From Candidatus Mesolinea sp. (lineage in GTDB: Bacteria > Chloroflexota > Anaerolineae > Anaerolineales > Anaerolineaceae), in contig DAOUFK010000002.1 in assembly GCA_034430095.1 (NCBI GenBank), forward strand, positions 7,617 through 71,616: DNA of 64,000 nt, in the 5' to 3' direction. The notes under the pieces are model-generated. The model was not told the DNA's origin. It was given only the letters and a program-made list of their open reading frames with translations, and did not search any database. The position numbers and the translations under genes were made by a program. Shown in pieces: positions 25,863 through 51,900 of the stretch. Numbering within the stretch: the first letter of the stretch is position 1; every line of letters starts with the position of its first letter.

Positions 25863-25967
25863 GTTCGGGCGGGACCGGCACGGCGGAGCCCTGCGAACCC
25901 CGTCAGGTCCGAGAGGAAGCAGCGGTAAGGAGGTCGCTTCGGGTGTTGCCGACAAACCTGCCCGAAC
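25863..25967 (+). ncRNA. ffs: signal recognition particle RNA (small bacterial 4.5S type)
   Basis: The conserved domain IV core GTCAGGTCCGAGAGGAAGCAGC is present. A long closing helix pairs gttcgggcggg with cctgcccgaac. Confidence 0.8.
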
Positions 25968-39101: not shown

Positions 39102-39110
39102 ACTAACCAC

Positions 39111-39182
39111 TGCGGGGTAGAGCAGTGGCAGCTCGTCGGGCTCATAACCCGGAGGTCAGTGGTTCGAATCCACTCCCCGCTA
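39111..39182 (+). tRNA. initiator tRNA-Met (anticodon CAT), copy 1
   Basis: Cloverleaf with anticodon loop CTCATAA. Initiator hallmarks are three consecutive G:C pairs closing the anticodon stem (GGG/CCC), A11:U24, and an unpaired 1:72 position (U.U). CCA is not encoded. Confidence 0.9.
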
Positions 39183-39186
39183 CTAT

Positions 39187-39215
39187 AAACAGAGCCTTGA
39201 AAAGGCTCTGTTTTT
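39187..39215 (+). terminator. rho-independent terminator after tRNA copy 1
   Basis: Stem acagagcc / ggctctgt, a 7-nt loop, then TTTTT. Confidence 0.6.
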
Positions 39216-42200
39216 GACTAGAACGGAAATTTTGCTGAAATACACAATTTCAAATGTCAAATTTCTCTCTAATAATTTGCCGGACTCGTTGGCTATCAAA
39301 CCCATTATTTTCAGTAGTGGTGATTAAATTGTCGGCAAAACCATGTTTTTTATACCAATTTTTCTTATTCTCCCAATGTTCTCTGTATTTTTGATTTGTT
39401 AACATCCCCAAGTGTTCCCAATACCATTGTTCTCCATGAATGTTGATAGTGAAATCTGGCAAATACATTGTTCCATCAGGAGCATATAATGGCACTTCAT
39501 ACAAGAATGGTATGTTTAAATCAGCCAATATATTAGCAATTATCACTTCAGATTTGGACCTCACCATGAGGCTAGTCAATGTTCTATGGATTTTGCCTTC
39601 TTCATACCATTCGTGCATTCTGAAGAGCTCAGCCGGCGAAGGCTTGAATGTAAACAAGGAAGAATTTATTCGATTGAGGATTGACCTTTCTGGCCTGCAT
39701 AAAGAAAGCAGGGGTTGGACATCTTCTTGAATTAATAATGTGCAATGGCTCTGAGCTCGTGTGATTCCTGTGTAGAACAATTCTCGCGATAAGAGAGCCT
39801 GCTTATATTTAGGTAAAACGAAATATACTCGCTGAAACTCACTGCCTTGGGATTTATGAACAGAAATGGCATATGCTAATTCAAGATTCTCAGTAACTGA
39901 TTCTTCGTTTTCATAATTCACCCAATAGTCTGGTTTTCGACTAAAGACTACTTGGAATCTTTCTATTCGGAAATTATTCCATTTCCACTTATCATTTTTA
40001 AGATCAAAACCATGAACTCGAACCATGCCAATTTCGCCATTAAATACTTCGATCCTTTCGTTTTTCCCTGTTTTGTGACAATATGCCATAACAGGGTTTG
40101 ATTTGGGACGGTTTACTATTTGTATCACTTTATCGAAGTAAGTTATTCCCCCTAACTGACCCTTTTTATCAAGTAACCAACCGCCTTTATGACGTTGGAT
40201 AATTCGATTAATGTTCTCCGTGCCATAAAGCTCTCCACGGTAGGGTGAGATAATTTGAAGAGACTCAGGGTAATCACCATCGGCTTTCTTGAATACAGAA
40301 TTCCATAATTCATATGGTTTACCTTGATCAAATTGCTTTCCCGAATCTTCTTCTAAATCTTTCACAATTGTTTTAAGTAAAATGTCTTCGAGCTCACCTG
40401 GCGTATTCCAATAAAGAACTCTCAGATCACCGCTAACATCTCCACCTTCAATTATTTTTGTTAGCATTTGGTCTTTAATTATTTCATCCTCTTCATTTTT
40501 GCCTGTTTGCGAATCACTTCGGAGAAAAATAGAGGCTGAATCTATAATGCCAGTGCCTTTATCTGTTAATCTATTTGTGAGTTGACGCATGTTAATTTTT
40601 AATTCTCCAATGGCTTCTGGTTGTTCAGTCTGAAGCCAGTCCATCAAATCAGCAAAAACCCTGCCAGTCCCGATGGGTGGCAATTGATTAGGATCACCCA
40701 CAAAAATTAAACGTTGAACTGAATTCCAATTGATTGCTCGGAAAAGCGTTGCAAGAAGTGGTAGATCTAGCATTGACGATTCATCGATAATATAAGTTGT
40801 TATAGCCTCTTCTTTTTGTCCGCCAGTTCGTTTAAACGTTAAATTCTCATTCAACCAGCCACGCTTGGCCAAAAATGAATGAATCGTCGCTGCTTGTTCA
40901 TGTGTTCGTTCCCTTAATCGATCAGCTGCTTTCCCCGTTGGCGCTAATAATTGAAAACTAGTGCCTTCTCCATGTGCTTTCTTAATTGCATTAATAATTG
41001 CGCCAACAACTGTAGTTTTTCCAGTGCCAGCACTTCCGCTAAGAATGCTAATTGGGCGCAAGAAGGTTCCTTGGCAAACCTTTATTTGTTGCGCGATAGC
41101 ATCTTCATATTCTTCTGGATGCGATTCAGAGAGCGGGCTTTTAGGGTCAAATAAGAAAAGATGCCAATTGCTGTCTGTCATTGGAAATTTGAGTTTAATA
41201 TTTTGCCTTTGGGCAAGGTCCCTGAGCACACTCTCAATATCACGCTCATCATCGAAAATTTGCTTCAAATACAGATAAAGCTGATTTGATTCATACCTGA
41301 ATTTCAATGCTTTGCTAATTTCATTTTTGTCGATCTCTAGATATCGGAGATTGAAATGAGCTTTTTTCCATTCGGGCAAATAACCGAGTTTGTGATTGAT
41401 GCTTTCTAGAATTGAATCTGCTAACAAAAAAGTGTGTTGATCTTGGTGTCGCAACTGTTCTACACAAAGAGCCCGTAGACGCTGCCAACTTTCAGGTTCT
41501 ACGAGTGTTGCTTTACCTAAATCTGGAGAGGGGAGCATTCCATGATCAATTTGGTTAAACGTTATTTGGTCATCTACATCTAAACCTATATATTGTTCAT
41601 ATAATATATAAGGGTTCTGCGATATTTCTTCTGGAGCCGATAGAATACAAACATTTCCAGGTTGGTCGATAATTCGTGAAATTTGATCAGTGCGCAAATC
41701 AAAACGTGGCAAGGTTTCACTGATTAACATTTGCTGATTAGGTTCTAATAATTGCCATTTCTTTCTGACTGAAGAAATACGCTGAGCTGATATGGTCATA
41801 TCGGGAATCGTACTGATCTCCCCACTCAGGAATGAAAACAGCAAATCTGTAACCTTTTGCTCACCAAGAATGGGGATCTGTTTGGTGGCATACTCTATTC
41901 CTTCAGAGAACTTTAAATAATCTAAAACTCGCAATAAACCAGGATATAAACCACGACTTTGCCAAAGTTCTGCCATAAGTGAACTCAACCAAGTTAACCT
42001 CAATGGCCAATTCTCATGGTTATCACCAATTTCTATAAGAACGCCAACAATTTCAGCCATTTGTTCAATGAGTGCGAGCGCACCATCATCGGTTATGTGC
42101 CGACTAGCATATTTAAATGCACGGGGGTTTTCCGGAACAAAAAGAATACGTTCTAGAACTTTCGGCTGATCCATATATGCATAATATGGGATTCTCAGAC

Positions 42201-43267
42201 CTTCCGTAGGATAGTTTGAAGTGATATTTCGCATCCACACATTTGGTCCGTAGCGTCGCTCCATTTCTTCAGATTGATCCGTCCAGGTAATTTCTTCACC
42301 AATAGATTTGATACGAGACATACCTATGATTACGTATTTTTGCTGCTCGTTCTCGCTGAACGGATTACTGTAATTTGCATAATAGAAAATTAAGCTCTTC
42401 GAAGGCGTGATTTTTGAGAAATATTCATTAACAGCTGTCCTCCGTTTTATTGGGTCATATTTCGGATATTTCGTTTCAGTATTAAGCACTTCTTCTTTAT
42501 ATACTTCTTCATAGGGCCATGTGCAGATGGTGTAGGGCGGTATAGTCCATGTGCGAGGGCTTGTATTATCTGTGAACCATTTTGGAGGCGGCATTTGTGC
42601 TGGTATTGGAAACGGGCTAAAAGCATTGACGCTGGCTAGACAAGGGATATAAAAATTGCTCAGTTCATTAACAGGCTTACCTGCAATTGGCTCCTCTAAC
42701 TGCAAATTGCGCCTTTCAGCAATTAAATCACCAGGAAAAGAAAAAAGCCCAGTGCAATAGGTGTTTTCCTTAGGATTACGGCAAACACAACCGTTCCATC
42801 CATAATCATGCCAAGCCATCCTTGCCGAAATGTGAATGGTCATATTTCCTCCAAATCTTTGCTTCTCGTATCATTAGTTAGGATGCTGTTCTAGACATTG
42901 ACCCTATTACAAAATTTCTACTTTTTTAGTAATTGAAATATATCACTAAATTGTTATTAAATATCTATATTATTTCGCAGTATTACTGCCTTATCAATAT
43001 TAATGATTAATCGAGATAACGGAATTACATGGAAGATAAACCCTAGCATTAATAAATTATGCCACCTTGTTACCAAAAGCGGAATGATTGAGGGCGGATA
43101 AAATTTCTAAGATATTTAGTTTTAGAAGTATCCATTTTCTACTTTTTACTGCCAATTGTTAATCAATTATAGCATAGACGTACTCACAACAACTTTTTAA
43201 GGATCTGTAATAAATCCTACTGATTACAATACTTTAAAAACCTGATCAATGGTTTGCTGTTTAAGGG
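39196..43267. mobile_element. AT-rich 4.07-kb insert between two identical tRNA-fMet genes (integrase-less genomic islet)
   Basis: It is bounded by perfect 88-bp direct repeats (39108-39195 and 43268-43355). The composition is visibly AT-rich compared with the flanks. The content is one gene plus a 424-bp leader. Confidence 0.55.
39250..42843 (-). CDS. 1197-aa multidomain protein: unknown N-terminal region (~590 aa) + RecD-like SF1 helicase core + C-terminal PD-(D/E)xK-like nuclease module
   Basis: The start is preceded by a GGAGG SD. Helicase motifs are Walker A SGSAGTGKTT (aa 602-611), Walker B YIIDESSM (684-691), GDPNQLPPIG (716-725), AISVHKSQGSEF (992-1003) and FYTGITRAQ (1023-1031). The C-terminal tail reads SKSEVIIANILxxLxIPFxYE...PDF...EHLG (aa 1096-1146). 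Confidence 0.85.
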   Translation of the reverse strand: MTIHISARMAWHDYGWNGCVCRNPKENTYCTGLFSFPGDLIAERRNLQLEEPIAGKPVNELSNFYIPCLASVNAFSPFPIPAQMPPPKWFTDNTSPRTWTIPPYTICTWPYEEVYKEEVLNTETKYPKYDPIKRRTAVNEYFSKITPSKSLIFYYANYSNPFSENEQQKYVIIGMSRIKSIGEEITWTDQSEEMERRYGPNVWMRNITSNYPTEGLRIPYYAYMDQPKVLERILFVPENPRAFKYASRHITDDGALALIEQMAEIVGVLIEIGDNHENWPLRLTWLSSLMAELWQSRGLYPGLLRVLDYLKFSEGIEYATKQIPILGEQKVTDLLFSFLSGEISTIPDMTISAQRISSVRKKWQLLEPNQQMLISETLPRFDLRTDQISRIIDQPGNVCILSAPEEISQNPYILYEQYIGLDVDDQITFNQIDHGMLPSPDLGKATLVEPESWQRLRALCVEQLRHQDQHTFLLADSILESINHKLGYLPEWKKAHFNLRYLEIDKNEISKALKFRYESNQLYLYLKQIFDDERDIESVLRDLAQRQNIKLKFPMTDSNWHLFLFDPKSPLSESHPEEYEDAIAQQIKVCQGTFLRPISILSGSAGTGKTTVVGAIINAIKKAHGEGTSFQLLAPTGKAADRLRERTHEQAATIHSFLAKRGWLNENLTFKRTGGQKEEAITTYIIDESSMLDLPLLATLFRAINWNSVQRLIFVGDPNQLPPIGTGRVFADLMDWLQTEQPEAIGELKINMRQLTNRLTDKGTGIIDSASIFLRSDSQTGKNEEDEIIKDQMLTKIIEGGDVSGDLRVLYWNTPGELEDILLKTIVKDLEEDSGKQFDQGKPYELWNSVFKKADGDYPESLQIISPYRGELYGTENINRIIQRHKGGWLLDKKGQLGGITYFDKVIQIVNRPKSNPVMAYCHKTGKNERIEVFNGEIGMVRVHGFDLKNDKWKWNNFRIERFQVVFSRKPDYWVNYENEESVTENLELAYAISVHKSQGSEFQRVYFVLPKYKQALLSRELFYTGITRAQSHCTLLIQEDVQPLLSLCRPERSILNRINSSLFTFKPSPAELFRMHEWYEEGKIHRTLTSLMVRSKSEVIIANILADLNIPFLYEVPLYAPDGTMYLPDFTINIHGEQWYWEHLGMLTNQKYREHWENKKNWYKKHGFADNLITTTENNGFDSQRVRQIIREKFDI

Positions 43268-43270
43268 CAC

Positions 43271-43342
43271 TGCGGGGTAGAGCAGTGGCAGCTCGTCGGG
43301 CTCATAACCCGGAGGTCAGTGGTTCGAATCCACTCCCCGCTA
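43271..43342 (+). tRNA. initiator tRNA-Met (anticodon CAT), copy 2
   Basis: This copy is identical over all 72 nt to copy 1. No consensus promoter is visible in the AT-rich sequence upstream. Confidence 0.9.
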
Positions 43343-43350
43343 CTATAAAC

Positions 43351-43375
43351 AGAGCTTGAAAAAGCTCTTTTTTTG
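43351..43375 (+). terminator. rho-independent terminator after tRNA copy 2
   Basis: Stem agagctt / aagctct, a 4-nt loop, then a T7 run. It is a diverged version of the copy-1 terminator. Confidence 0.5.
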
Positions 43376-48361: not shown

Positions 48362-48509
48362 ATCAGTTTGCTGCAAAGTTGTACCAATCTACATCCAGCA
48401 CTTCTAAAAAGAGGCTGGATTTTTTATTTGCACAAGCTTTTCTCTGCTGCAAAGTTGACATTGTTGATAAAAAGGGTAGGATTTAGTTACTATAAAAAAT
48501 ATAGTAGTG

Positions 48510-48827
48510 ATGAAGATGAAACCTACCTGCCCCATTGAAAAAGCGACCTCGTTCCTTGGCACCAAGTGGACGCTGGGAATCATCTATTTCCTCCAGGAGC
48601 CGCGGAGGTATTGTGAACTGCAAGAGTTGTTAGGCGGGATTAACCCCGTCACACTGACCCAGCGCCTTAAACTGCTGGAGGCAGAGGGAATCTTGAACCG
48701 CGAAGTGATCCCTGATGCCCAGCGGCATGTCGAATATAAGCTCAGCGCAAAAGGGAAGGACCTTGTTGCAGTTTATCAAGACTTGAGCATGTGGGTTTCG
48801 CGTTGGTATCCAGAGGAGGCATATTGA
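48510..48827 (+). CDS. HxlR-family transcriptional regulator
   Basis: The CPIEKATSFLGTKWTLGIIYFL motif is typical of HxlR. The start is ambiguous (GTG 48507, ATG 48510 or ATG 48516). Confidence 0.8.
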   Translation: MKMKPTCPIEKATSFLGTKWTLGIIYFLQEPRRYCELQELLGGINPVTLTQRLKLLEAEGILNREVIPDAQRHVEYKLSAKGKDLVAVYQDLSMWVSRWYPEEAY

Positions 48828-48934
48828 GAAAAATCGAAACCATTGACCTAACTCAGTTTGGTATCCAAACTATTGGTAACTATTGTGACCCCCTAACCGG
48901 GGAATGCTATTCTGATGATGCAAAGGAGAAAATC

Positions 48935-49099
48935 ATGGAAACAAGAATCGATCCCGTCTGCAAGATGGAAGTGAAAGTGGAAGGCGCTCAATACGTGAGT
49001 GAATATGCCGGAGAAAAGTATTACTTCTGCTCGGCTGGCTGCCAGGAGGCATTCGAAGAGCATCCGGAAAAGTATGTCGAAGGCGCTGCCAAAGCTTAG
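48935..49099 (+). CDS. YHS/TRASH-domain metal-binding protein
   Basis: The core reads DPVCKMEV...YYFCSAGCQEAFEEHPEKY. The start is ATG 48935, after AAGGAG. I reject the longer ORF starting at 48791. Confidence 0.7.
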   Translation: METRIDPVCKMEVKVEGAQYVSEYAGEKYYFCSAGCQEAFEEHPEKYVEGAAKA

Positions 49100-49290: not shown

Positions 49291-50238
49291 ATGCTTAATA
49301 TCCCCCAGCCCTTAGCCATTGCCGTGGACCGCATTCATCCGGATACCTTACCAGGCTACGTGCACCTTAAAGTTATCGATCTTGATAATCAAGTAATGTT
49401 TTATCAACAGGCGATTGGCTTGCAGCTCAATTGGCGCGAAGGCAACAGTGCCGGCTTGGGCATCGAGGGCAGGGACATTGTCCGTCTGACTCAGATTGCC
49501 AAAGGTCGGCGTTATCATGGGGTTACAGGTATTTATCACTTTGCAATTCTTTTTCCGAAACGGCGAGAACTGGCTCGGGTTGTGGCGCGCCTTTTCTCAA
49601 TGCGCTGGCAAAACTATCCAACGGACCATTTAATGACCAAGACGACTTATGTAGATGACCCCGAAGGCAACACGATTGAGCTTTATTGTGAATCTCCTGA
49701 AGATGGTATCTCTGAGGTAGTCAATGGTGAGTTTGTTGCGCGTCATGCCGACGGAAGACCTAGCAATGGGCGCGAACCATTAGACCTCGATGAGCTCTTT
49801 TCCCACCTAACGCCTGAGGATCAGTTGGATTTAAATGTGCCGCCAGAAACACGCATGGGTCATTTTCATCTCTATGTGGCTGATCTGACAGAGACTCGCC
49901 GCTTTTACCACGAAATCTTAGGCTTTGATGATATGGGTGTAGCCAGGAGCTTCCGCATGGGTATGGTCTCGGCAGGCGGCTACCATCATCATATTGGCTT
50001 CAACACCTGGCAGGGTGAAGGCGCGCCGCCGCCCCCTGAAGATGCGCTTGGGCTGCTCTATTTCACCTTCAATTTGCCCAATGCCCAGGAGCTCGAGCGC
50101 ATGGATGGTTTATTAGCCCAAAAAGGGGTGGCATTTGAGCGCCGGCCGGATGGATTGTTTCTGCATGATCCCTCACGTAACGCTTTGCTGTTGAGCACTG
50201 CGGATTTATTACTACCAGCCTCTTTAGAGGAGATATGA
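49291..50238 (+). CDS. two-domain VOC (glyoxalase/extradiol dioxygenase-like) protein
   Basis: Two repeats of the glyoxalase-fold pattern are present (HLKVIDLDNQVMFYQQAIGL and HFHLYVADLTETRRFYHEILGF). Confidence 0.75.
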   Translation: MLNIPQPLAIAVDRIHPDTLPGYVHLKVIDLDNQVMFYQQAIGLQLNWREGNSAGLGIEGRDIVRLTQIAKGRRYHGVTGIYHFAILFPKRRELARVVARLFSMRWQNYPTDHLMTKTTYVDDPEGNTIELYCESPEDGISEVVNGEFVARHADGRPSNGREPLDLDELFSHLTPEDQLDLNVPPETRMGHFHLYVADLTETRRFYHEILGFDDMGVARSFRMGMVSAGGYHHHIGFNTWQGEGAPPPPEDALGLLYFTFNLPNAQELERMDGLLAQKGVAFERRPDGLFLHDPSRNALLLSTADLLLPASLEEI

Positions 50239-50888
50239 TGCCTGAACTTAGGATTGATTTTTATCACGACGTGCTTTGAGTGTGGTGCTTTTTAGCCTCG
50301 GCGAGGCTACGGCGCATTATCAAAGATTACCCTCAGCTGAATATTGTGCACCATGCTTTTGCCTTAGCACCTGAGCTGGAATCCATTTCTCGCATGTTCG
50401 GCAATGCGAAAGAAGGCAAGGAGGAAATTATGGGCCACTGGGCGGCAGCTGCTTCCCAGCCGGATGGCGAAGCAATCAACGTGGCGTTGATGCGCAGCCG
50501 CAGCTTTCCCTACCCTTATTCGATGCCTGGTTTGTTAGCTTGTAAAGCAGCCGAGATGCAGGGGGGCATGCCAGCGCACTGGGATATGTTCGACCGCGTG
50601 CAGTGGGCGCATGCGGTGGAAGCGCGCAACATCACCGATAGCGCTGTGCTCAGGGATTGTGCTGCGGAAATTGGCTTGGATGTTGCCCGCTGGGAAGCGG
50701 ATTTTGCCAGCCCAGAGGCAAAGCAGGCGGTGCAAAACGATCTGCGCGAGGCACAACAGTTGGGCGTAAACGCCGTACCGACGCTGATCTTCAACCAGCG
50801 TTGGATCCTGCCTGGGGCAGTGCCCGAAAGCATGCTGCGGCAAATCGTTGAAAACTTGCTGGAAGGGAAAGAACCAACTGCTCGTTAA
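50235..50888 (+). CDS. DsbA/FrnE-family thiol:disulfide oxidoreductase with an in-frame TGA at the first Cys of CxxC (candidate selenoprotein, or a nonsense pseudogene)
   Basis: ATG 50235 follows GAGGAG and overlaps the upstream stop. The translation is MMPELRIDFYHDVL-TGA-VWCFLASARL..., so TGA (50277-50279) sits where the family has CxxC. The C-terminal GVNAVPTLIF motif is present. The ORF-track call (50280-50888) starts right after the TGA. Confidence 0.6.
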
Positions 50889-51345: not shown

Positions 51346-51900
51346 ATGGTTGTGCTGAGCGTTGTTCTATCTGCATGTGCAGGTCCAATTGAAGCTCCAA
51401 CGGAGTTTCCAACAAAAGCCCCAACGAAAGCTCCAACTACAGCTCCGACAAAAGCACCAACAAGAACACCAACCGAAACTCCGACAGAAGTGCCGACAGA
51501 GGAACCCATTGAATATGGTCAGATTAAGATTTGGAATTGGAATAATCCTGAGTTCTACTTGACTTATGACAAAGCAAAATGGGAAGCTACAGAATACGAC
51601 TCACTTGACTCAAAACTCTACCCAGGCTGTAACATTGCTGCCAATGGCTTTCGCGATGGCGGACCAGATGGGCCTCCGCCTTATACATACGAATCTGACA
51701 CTCATTTCTTTGCTGACACAGAGTTTTCATTGGAACTTGAAATCCCCAAGGCGACCGGAGTTGCGGATATGATCCATGTCTATTGGGATGATTACGCATA
51801 TCAATTAGCTCTTTTCCCAAGTACTGAAAACTATGATGAGTGCGTTGCGGAATTTTGGGAAGTAATGGAACTTTCCATAGCCAACAATTTTGGTCAATAG
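51346..51900 (+). CDS. lipoprotein with Pro/Thr-rich linker, unknown function
   Basis: Lipobox LSAC followed by (A/E)PTKAPT repeats. The upstream in-frame ATG 51313 has a strong SD but is separated from this ORF by a TAA codon (see finding). Confidence 0.55.
   Translation: MVVLSVVLSACAGPIEAPTEFPTKAPTKAPTTAPTKAPTRTPTETPTEVPTEEPIEYGQIKIWNWNNPEFYLTYDKAKWEATEYDSLDSKLYPGCNIAANGFRDGGPDGPPPYTYESDTHFFADTEFSLELEIPKATGVADMIHVYWDDYAYQLALFPSTENYDECVAEFWEVMELSIANNFGQ

Follow-up and report, generated by a model that had tools for sequence, protein, structure and literature searches.

A 64-kb stretch of Candidatus Mesolinea sp. DNA (64,000 nucleotides of contig DAOUFK010000002.1, referred to below as the window) holds a gene of the DsbA/FrnE type that is crossed, in frame, by a TGA codon, and the comparisons described here point to a selenoprotein. 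We put the probability at roughly 0.88 that positions 50238-50888 encode a cytoplasmic DsbA/FrnE-family oxidoreductase in which the N-terminal active-site cysteine (Cys) is replaced by selenocysteine (Sec), so that the motif would read U-V-W-C. If the established bacterial mechanism applies, SelB carrying Sec-tRNA(Sec) would bind a stem-loop on the translating mRNA and decode the UGA as Sec, and the enzyme would cycle between a selenolate/thiol and a selenenylsulfide formed with the Cys at +3. A sequence-only reading of the window had proposed a candidate UxxC selenoprotein at this place, and the proposal is supported by Sec/Cys pairs among relatives, conserved flanks and a frozen hairpin, all of them features of sequence. 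The family to which such a protein would belong is already known; what is new is the clade, the systematic truncation in databases, and a series of Sec-to-Cys reversions. The current understanding of selenoproteins is unchanged by the result.

The gene can be followed through the TGA. Its frame, MMPELRIDFYHDVL-TGA-VWCFLASARLRRI, is open as far as the TAA at 50886-50888, and the Pfam DSBA domain (PF01323) aligns across the TGA, over residues 6-203 (E=2.9e-23; 83.1 bits against a gathering cut-off of 25.6). This continuation is as the sequence-only reading described it, except that it counted 203 further codons and there are 202 sense codons; the window's list of open reading frames (ORFs) gives a 202-aa ORF for the gene. 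Two adjacent ATGs, at 50235 and 50238, lie 3′ of the Shine-Dalgarno (SD) sequence GAGGAG (50227-50232), and both overlap the TGA stop (50236-50238) of an upstream VOC gene. ATG 50235, the start first proposed, does have that SD and that overlap; from its sequence context, ATG 50238 is nevertheless the more likely start, because it leaves a 5-nt spacer after the SD and because orthologues begin MPELRI or MSELRL. The predicted product is then 216 aa long with Sec at residue 14 (217 aa if translation starts at ATG 50235). General reassignment of TGA was considered and rejected: TGA is an ordinary stop for 11 of the 42 long ORFs in the window, including the VOC gene directly upstream. When the window was scanned for other ORFs split by an in-frame TGA and carrying redox motifs, this gene alone was found, and the remaining hits were off-frame overlaps of real genes.

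The TGA stands where relatives have Cys. It aligns with the first Cys of the CPWC motif in FrnE of Deinococcus radiodurans (5CNW), which bears out the claim that it occupies the position of the nucleophilic Cys, and an alignment of orthologues, which had been suggested as a check, gives Sec/Cys pairs at exactly this codon. DNA was compared for 66 GTDB species-representative loci and 39 metagenome loci, the Cys/Sec site being readable in 36 of the latter. TGA is found at precisely this codon in 20 of the 66 species-representative loci: 19 form the main clade, which takes in Mesolinea and other Anaerolineae, other Chloroflexota, Actinomycetes, Coriobacteriia, Gemmatimonadota and Clostridiales, and one is from Calditrichaeota (locus L061). 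The remaining species-representative loci have TGT or TGC there, and these include two (L004 and L005) that are 85% identical to the window gene. The readable metagenome loci divide into 25 with TGA and 11 with Cys. About 200 codons downstream of the TGA are intact in all TGA forms. The TGA form is also present in assemblies named Thermoflexus hugenholtzii, whose matching RefSeq entry, WP_448592326.1, is a “DsbA family oxidoreductase” cut short to 200 aa; a Sec form in a cultured species makes selenium labelling and functional work on the family feasible.

The Calditrichaeota locus stands apart from this clade. That metagenome-assembled genome has the TGA in the corresponding place (L061:3040-3090; …FFHDVL*SWCY…), but the locus falls outside the main Sec clade, its downstream sequence differs, and its one hairpin, a weak one of 6 bp, is indistinguishable from shuffles. 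It may represent an independent gain of Sec or a pseudogene.

Public databases mostly hold shortened versions of the protein. All public gene calls examined truncate the gene. A protein search yielded 120 close entries for comparison, and 76 of these are N-terminally short: 15 begin at V/MWCF, immediately after the Cys codon, and 61 begin further downstream, while 44 are full length (...HDVLC[VA]WC...). None of the 120 has an annotated U residue. As a result the databases lack the active site, and the use of Sec in Anaerolineae and Thermoflexia is under-counted. A similar miscall affects some Cys forms and mimics the truncation of the Sec forms: three Anaerolineaceae loci (L008:1560-1605, L093 and L094) have CTG where relatives have an ATG or TTG start, and, since their open upstream frame has no canonical start, gene callers begin at the GTG after the Cys codon.

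Several features indicate that translation begins upstream of the TGA. In every TGA form a start codon, itself preceded by a purine-rich (SD-like) stretch, lies 10-14 codons 5′ of the TGA. Across the 13 codons before the TGA the protein is conserved and the changes are synonymous; for example, the peptide F-Y/F-H-D-V-L is kept while its codons vary (TTT/TTC, TAT/TAC, CAC/CAT, GAC/GAT, GTN and CTN). Roughly half of the TGA forms have a non-start codon (GTA, GTC, GTT, GCC or GCG) directly after the TGA, and the annotated truncated protein is therefore no general solution.

The UGA is followed closely by a stem-loop that resembles a selenocysteine insertion sequence (SECIS). Its upper stem, TAGCCTC-GGC-GAGGCTA, spans 50293-50309, with 7 bp between 50293-50299 and 50303-50309 and an apical loop (GGC) at 50300-50302. 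The sequence-only reading had reported this 7-bp hairpin correctly and placed it 16 nt after the TGA, a distance that holds from the first base of the codon: the hairpin starts 13 nt past the last TGA base, and the apical loop 20 nt after the UGA. The lower-stem extension it suggested (50286-50288 with 50314-50316) pairs as claimed and belongs to a longer, conserved lower stem (50282-50288 with 50314-50320), with two joining pairs between the stems (50290-50291 with 50311-50312). The 40-nt element folds at -16.3 kcal/mol (z=-2.74; 3 of 200 shuffles were as good). The exact core motif occurs once in the 64 kb, where about 0.25 matches would be expected even with one mismatch allowed.

Conservation of the hairpin goes beyond that of its surroundings in the gene. 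The core GCCUC-GGN-GAGGC is kept in all 29 distinct TGA forms, with 7 of 7 pairs in 23 of these segments and 6 of 7 in the other 6. The UCG and AGG codons are invariant among them, and the loop varies at its third base only (GGC, GGA or GGU). Codon entropy is 0 across 19 Sec forms for codons 21-24 (GCC-UCG-GCG-AGG, the inner stem and loop), compared with 0.61-2.44 bits for other conserved columns of 4- or 6-fold degeneracy (55 of 55) in the same forms. Cells of the upper stem are paired in 96.8% of cases, against 30-57% in controls with the partner slid, and the extended structure of 16 pairs is 91.3% paired, against 34-54% in slid controls. The upper stem also contains compensatory double changes (G-C to A-U and U-A to C-G). 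Judged by these patterns, the hairpin is under selection at the RNA level. It is like known bacterial SECIS elements (Escherichia coli fdhF and the bSECISearch consensus) in being a stem-loop directly 3′ of the UGA within coding sequence, in having G at the first two apical-loop positions at the usual distance from the UGA, and in being built of an upper stem, an internal mismatch and a lower stem. It is unlike them in its upper stem, a perfect helix of 7 bp that lacks a bulged U and is capped by a GGN loop of 3 nt.

Cys forms of the same clade supply a comparison for the same peptide. Apart from the two most recent revertants, L004 and L005/L077, which have 7 of 7 pairs, those that encode LASARL or LTSARL use other codons (GCG, ACT, CGG, CGA, TTG) and form 4-6 of the 7 pairs. 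One Cys form, L016, shows no more folding than expected (z=+1.8). A covariance model, another of the checks that had been proposed, was built on the GTDB Sec forms and scored on independently fetched Sec forms, on Cys forms and on the window. Sec forms score 58-78 bits, the recent revertants 61-63 and older Cys forms 17-38; distant Cys forms are unmatched, and the 64-kb window has no second match. The model also captures coding conservation, and these scores are not a purely structural test.

The Cys forms that keep the hairpin deserve a description of their own. Three TGT orthologues that are 85% identical to the window gene (L004:131-184, L005:3043-3096 and L077:10043-10096) retain a perfect 7-bp SECIS stem, and the L004 loop is UGC in place of GGC. 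It looks as if these genes reverted from Sec to Cys recently and still bear a “fossil” SECIS. SECIS-like structures are likewise kept in closely related Cys forms of other families (PMC13582414), and dynamic exchange of Sec and Cys is the theme of an earlier study (PMC1794560). In a neighbour-joining tree, made without bootstrap, all main-clade Sec forms fall into one clade, sister to the distant Cys forms, with three Cys subclades nested within it. On the simplest reading, Sec would have replaced Cys once and spread across phyla, with Cys regained at least three times; as far as the aligned sequences tell, decay of the hairpin tracks the age of each reversion. The clade would thus form a natural series, one Sec origin followed by at least three Sec-to-Cys reversions of different ages, in which the SECIS is frozen while Sec is present and decays afterwards, and this makes it useful for studies of Sec/Cys evolution.

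Other explanations of the TGA have to be set against this evidence. One base change (TGC or TGT to TGA) in an ordinary DsbA/FrnE gene would be enough to make a pseudogene, public gene calls do read the TGA as a stop, and Sec machinery is not seen in the available sequence. This explanation, the alternative originally named beside the selenoprotein, is scarcely credible given the conservation of the TGA, its flanks and the hairpin: the same TGA recurs in 19 species-level genomes of the clade, from several phyla, and on 25 metagenome contigs, the reading frame stays intact for some 200 codons after it, the peptide before it is conserved and the synonymous sites of the hairpin are frozen, whereas a decaying pseudogene shows none of these features. 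Nor do relatives fit the pattern that had been named as counting against Sec, in which they would have TGC or TGT and the hairpin would be unconserved; the hairpin is kept in TGA forms and lost in older Cys forms. The protein could also be made in a truncated form from GTG 50280, directly after the TGA, or from a downstream Met, with the 14 codons before it serving as a leader or remaining untranslated and the hairpin being regulatory. Fifteen database entries start at that position and 61 further downstream, and the ORF list likewise has 202 aa, but such a product would be without strand beta1 and the nucleophilic residue, and around half of the TGA forms lack a start codon there. The upstream peptide is moreover under protein-level selection and matches the full-length Cys orthologues, and the only SD-like sequence lies before the upstream ATG; truncation is accordingly very improbable. 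Replacement of Sec by a different amino acid is a further option: the UGA might be read through as Cys (by a tRNA-Sec-like tRNA-Cys with SelB) or as Trp (by a near-cognate tRNA). Cys insertion by a tRNA-Sec-like tRNA-Cys together with SelB was reportedly described by Vargas-Rodriguez et al. in 2018, and evidence of the present kind demonstrates recoding and an RNA element, and does not identify the inserted amino acid. Such read-through is nevertheless improbable here, as the element fits bacterial SECIS geometry with a GG loop at the usual distance from the UGA, UxxC belongs to an established Sec family, Cys-inserting recoding is rare, and true Sec genes are reported to behave as these do, reverting repeatedly to TGT or TGC and losing the hairpin.

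Some observations weigh against Sec insertion itself or against the hairpin as its signal. The four inner stem pairs never vary, and classical covariation support is therefore confined to two pairs; the hairpin lies inside coding sequence, and part of its conservation therefore comes from protein constraint; and a permissive Rfam scan of 50200-50400 matched no family to it. The Sec-decoding machinery was also not found nearby: the 64-kb window has no tRNA-Sec, selA, selB or selD (ARAGORN, Rfam, and SelA/SelB/SelD motif scans), and no Sec machinery was detected in the ~9 kb of the 180-kb parent contig beyond the window start, in a short Logan contig matching the window end, or in ~0.8 Mb of flanks (ARAGORN on the 66 loci; SelB, SelD and SelA motifs). 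SelB, the selenocysteine-specific elongation factor, is encoded by Anaerolinea thermophila UNI-1 and by several Anaerolineales single-cell genomes (PMC4959059), and the Chloroflexota include the very selenoprotein-rich Dehalococcoidia. A search of the literature on Sec machinery in Mesolinea or Thermoflexus gave nothing specific.

The predicted protein can be placed among known thiol-disulfide oxidoreductases by sequence and by a structural model. FrnE of D. radiodurans is its best sequence match among solved structures (5CNW; E=1.8e-15, residues 4-204). The structure modelled with AlphaFold (AF2) was that of a natural Cys orthologue, P0002, which is 87% identical; in this model (predicted local distance difference test score, pLDDT, 96.1) the Cys/Sec position caps the N-terminus of helix 15-30 (alpha1), and a loop that is invariant in the alignments, A-V-P-T, precedes strand 182-185. 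By inference, the loop with Pro182 corresponds to the cis-Pro loop of the thioredoxin fold. The best Foldseek matches of the model, with template modelling (TM) scores of 0.72-0.81, are the cytoplasmic DsbA-like proteins YjbH, FrnE, DsbM and SCO1869, and the model and these matches display a thioredoxin fold with an inserted helical domain. The DSBA domain, the CxxC-type motif at the N-terminus of alpha1 and the conserved Pro loop are the features of the DsbA/FrnE group. The window protein has no signal peptide, which sets it apart from periplasmic DsbA: with strand beta1 beginning at residue 4 and Sec at 14-15, there is no space for one.

Similarity to individual members of this group is partial. 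FrnE shares the fold and the active-site position, and neither protein has a signal peptide; it differs in having Cys (CPWC), a length of 260 aa and a C-terminal tail, and its identity with the window protein is ~23%. At its C-terminus (...LLEGKEPTAR, ending with residue 217) the window protein lacks Cys, unlike FrnE in the strict sense: the D. radiodurans protein has a second Cys pair in its C-terminal extension. YjbH/SpxH (6GHO/6GHB) and DsbM of Pseudomonas aeruginosa (5HFG/5HFI) are top structural matches at TM 0.73-0.81, with a cytoplasmic DsbA fold, but they have no Sec and only 21-24% sequence identity to the window protein, and YjbH is a ClpXP adaptor for Spx and not a catalytic oxidoreductase. 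NCBIfam has no specific model for the protein; its best match there is the Rcas_1661 (seleno)lipoprotein, at 25.5 bits against a cut-off of 190.

A closer counterpart is the DsbA-like UxxC selenoprotein family. From the Sargasso Sea, Zhang, Fomenko and Gladyshev (2005; PMC1088965) described a “DsbA-like protein” (COG2761, UxxC) as a selenoprotein family new at the time, and DsbA-like selenoproteins were found in 2006 in Anaeromyxobacter, Desulfovibrio and Desulfotomaculum genomes. A 2016 survey lists a DsbA-like selenoprotein family with counts of 41 and 45, and a 2026 review has an entry for “DsbA-like protein form 1, PF01323, UxxC” and describes the functions of such proteins as largely uncharacterised. 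The window gene shares with this family the Pfam domain, the UxxC motif with Sec for the first Cys, a SECIS hairpin directly downstream and widespread Cys homologues, and so, at the level of sequence, the predicted protein has every feature by which the family is defined. It differs in that the Anaerolineae/Thermoflexus/Actinomycetota/Gemmatimonadota/Clostridiales clade is not named in the papers on the family that were consulted.

Features of the selenoprotein gene, its neighbourhood and the rest of the window (positions are those of the window).
Feature	Position	Strand	Basis or remark
Bacterial small signal recognition particle (SRP) RNA	25867..25966		Rfam, 56 bits vs gathering score 40; ordinary housekeeping RNA
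Promoter-like site, before the HxlR gene	48455..48482		Promoter scan
HxlR-family regulator, head of cluster	48507..48827	+	Pfam family on matching JGI contig
YHS-domain protein, head of cluster	48824..49099	+	Pfam family on matching JGI contig
Two-domain VOC/glyoxalase gene, 315 aa	49291..50238	+	Pfam Glyoxalase, E=2.8e-14
SD sequence GAGGAG for the selenoprotein start	50227..50232	+	Sequence
Predicted selenoprotein gene (cytoplasmic DsbA/FrnE-like thiol-disulfide oxidoreductase, U-V-W-C)	50238..50888	+	Translation, Pfam DSBA, FrnE 5CNW, orthologue model
In-frame UGA, predicted Sec codon, in place of the N-terminal nucleophilic Cys of CxxC	50277..50279	+	
SECIS-like stem-loop	50282..50320	+	Fold, pairing counts, codon entropy, covariance model
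TGC, resolving Cys of UxxC	50286..50288	+	Sequence; nearly invariant among full-length homologues
CCG, conserved Pro of the A-V-P-T loop (Pro182, 217-aa numbering)	50778..50780	+	Invariant in alignments A1 and A3

The neighbours of the gene offer some hints of its role. The matching JGI contig has, in this order, the genes for the HxlR regulator, the YHS protein, the VOC protein and the predicted selenoprotein. The VOC and selenoprotein genes are probably translationally coupled, to judge from the overlap of the VOC TGA stop with the selenoprotein start. The arrangement is shared in part by relatives: an HxlR gene adjoins in 10 related loci, and a VOC gene is directly upstream in L005, L007, L012, L027 and the Thermoflexus loci L110-L114. 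The Mesolinea-like locus L002 has a luciferase-like oxidoreductase and a CPWC DsbA paralogue between its YHS and Sec genes, and it, L001 and L003 are without a VOC gene at that slot. The Thermoflexus loci add DoxX proteins and another DsbA-like gene.

A second, Cys-type DsbA/FrnE paralogue (CPWC or CSWC) lies within a few kb of the gene in many Sec-form loci (L002:1368-2929, L097:13383, L098:12921, L103:5028 and L111:13751-14647), often accompanied by genes for luciferase-like oxidoreductases and DoxX, so that a single redox cluster contains both Sec and Cys paralogues.

HxlR/DUF24 regulators, VOC dioxygenases and DoxX proteins are found together in the quinone and catechol stress regulons of Bacillus. 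By analogy, the gene neighbourhood, which is the one source of this idea, hints that the protein may help the cell to cope with thiol, electrophile or quinone stress in the cytoplasm. It is conceivable, with the odds clearly against it, that the gene is the selenium-dependent part of a conserved cytoplasmic module for electrophile/quinone detoxification that has moved between at least four phyla. In such a module a ring-cleaving VOC dioxygenase, translationally coupled to the Sec-containing FrnE, would be under the control of the HxlR-type regulator; the luciferase-like oxidoreductases, DoxX and the Cys-type DsbA paralogue of relatives would be further parts, as would the unusually invariant SECIS with its GGN triloop. 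If true, this would give the DsbA-like selenoprotein family a defined physiological role and, in Thermoflexus hugenholtzii, a cultured organism in which to test it.

The gene directly downstream (51346-51900) encodes 184 aa, in which a short N-terminus, hydrophobic and containing Cys, is followed by a long repeat rich in Pro and Thr (APTEFPTKAPTKAPTTAPTKAPTRTPTETPTEVPTEEP); its product may be a lipoprotein or surface protein and is apparently unrelated to the selenoprotein gene. Elsewhere in the window, a 97-nt direct repeat (39108-39204 and 43268-43364; 97% identical, copies 4160 nt apart) brackets an ORF on the minus strand (39250-42870) for a 1206-aa helicase-like protein (AAA_30/UvrD_C_2). 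Each copy consists of a whole tRNA-Met(CAT) gene and ~24 nt of 3′ flank, and the pair may have arisen by duplication or may mark where an element was inserted.

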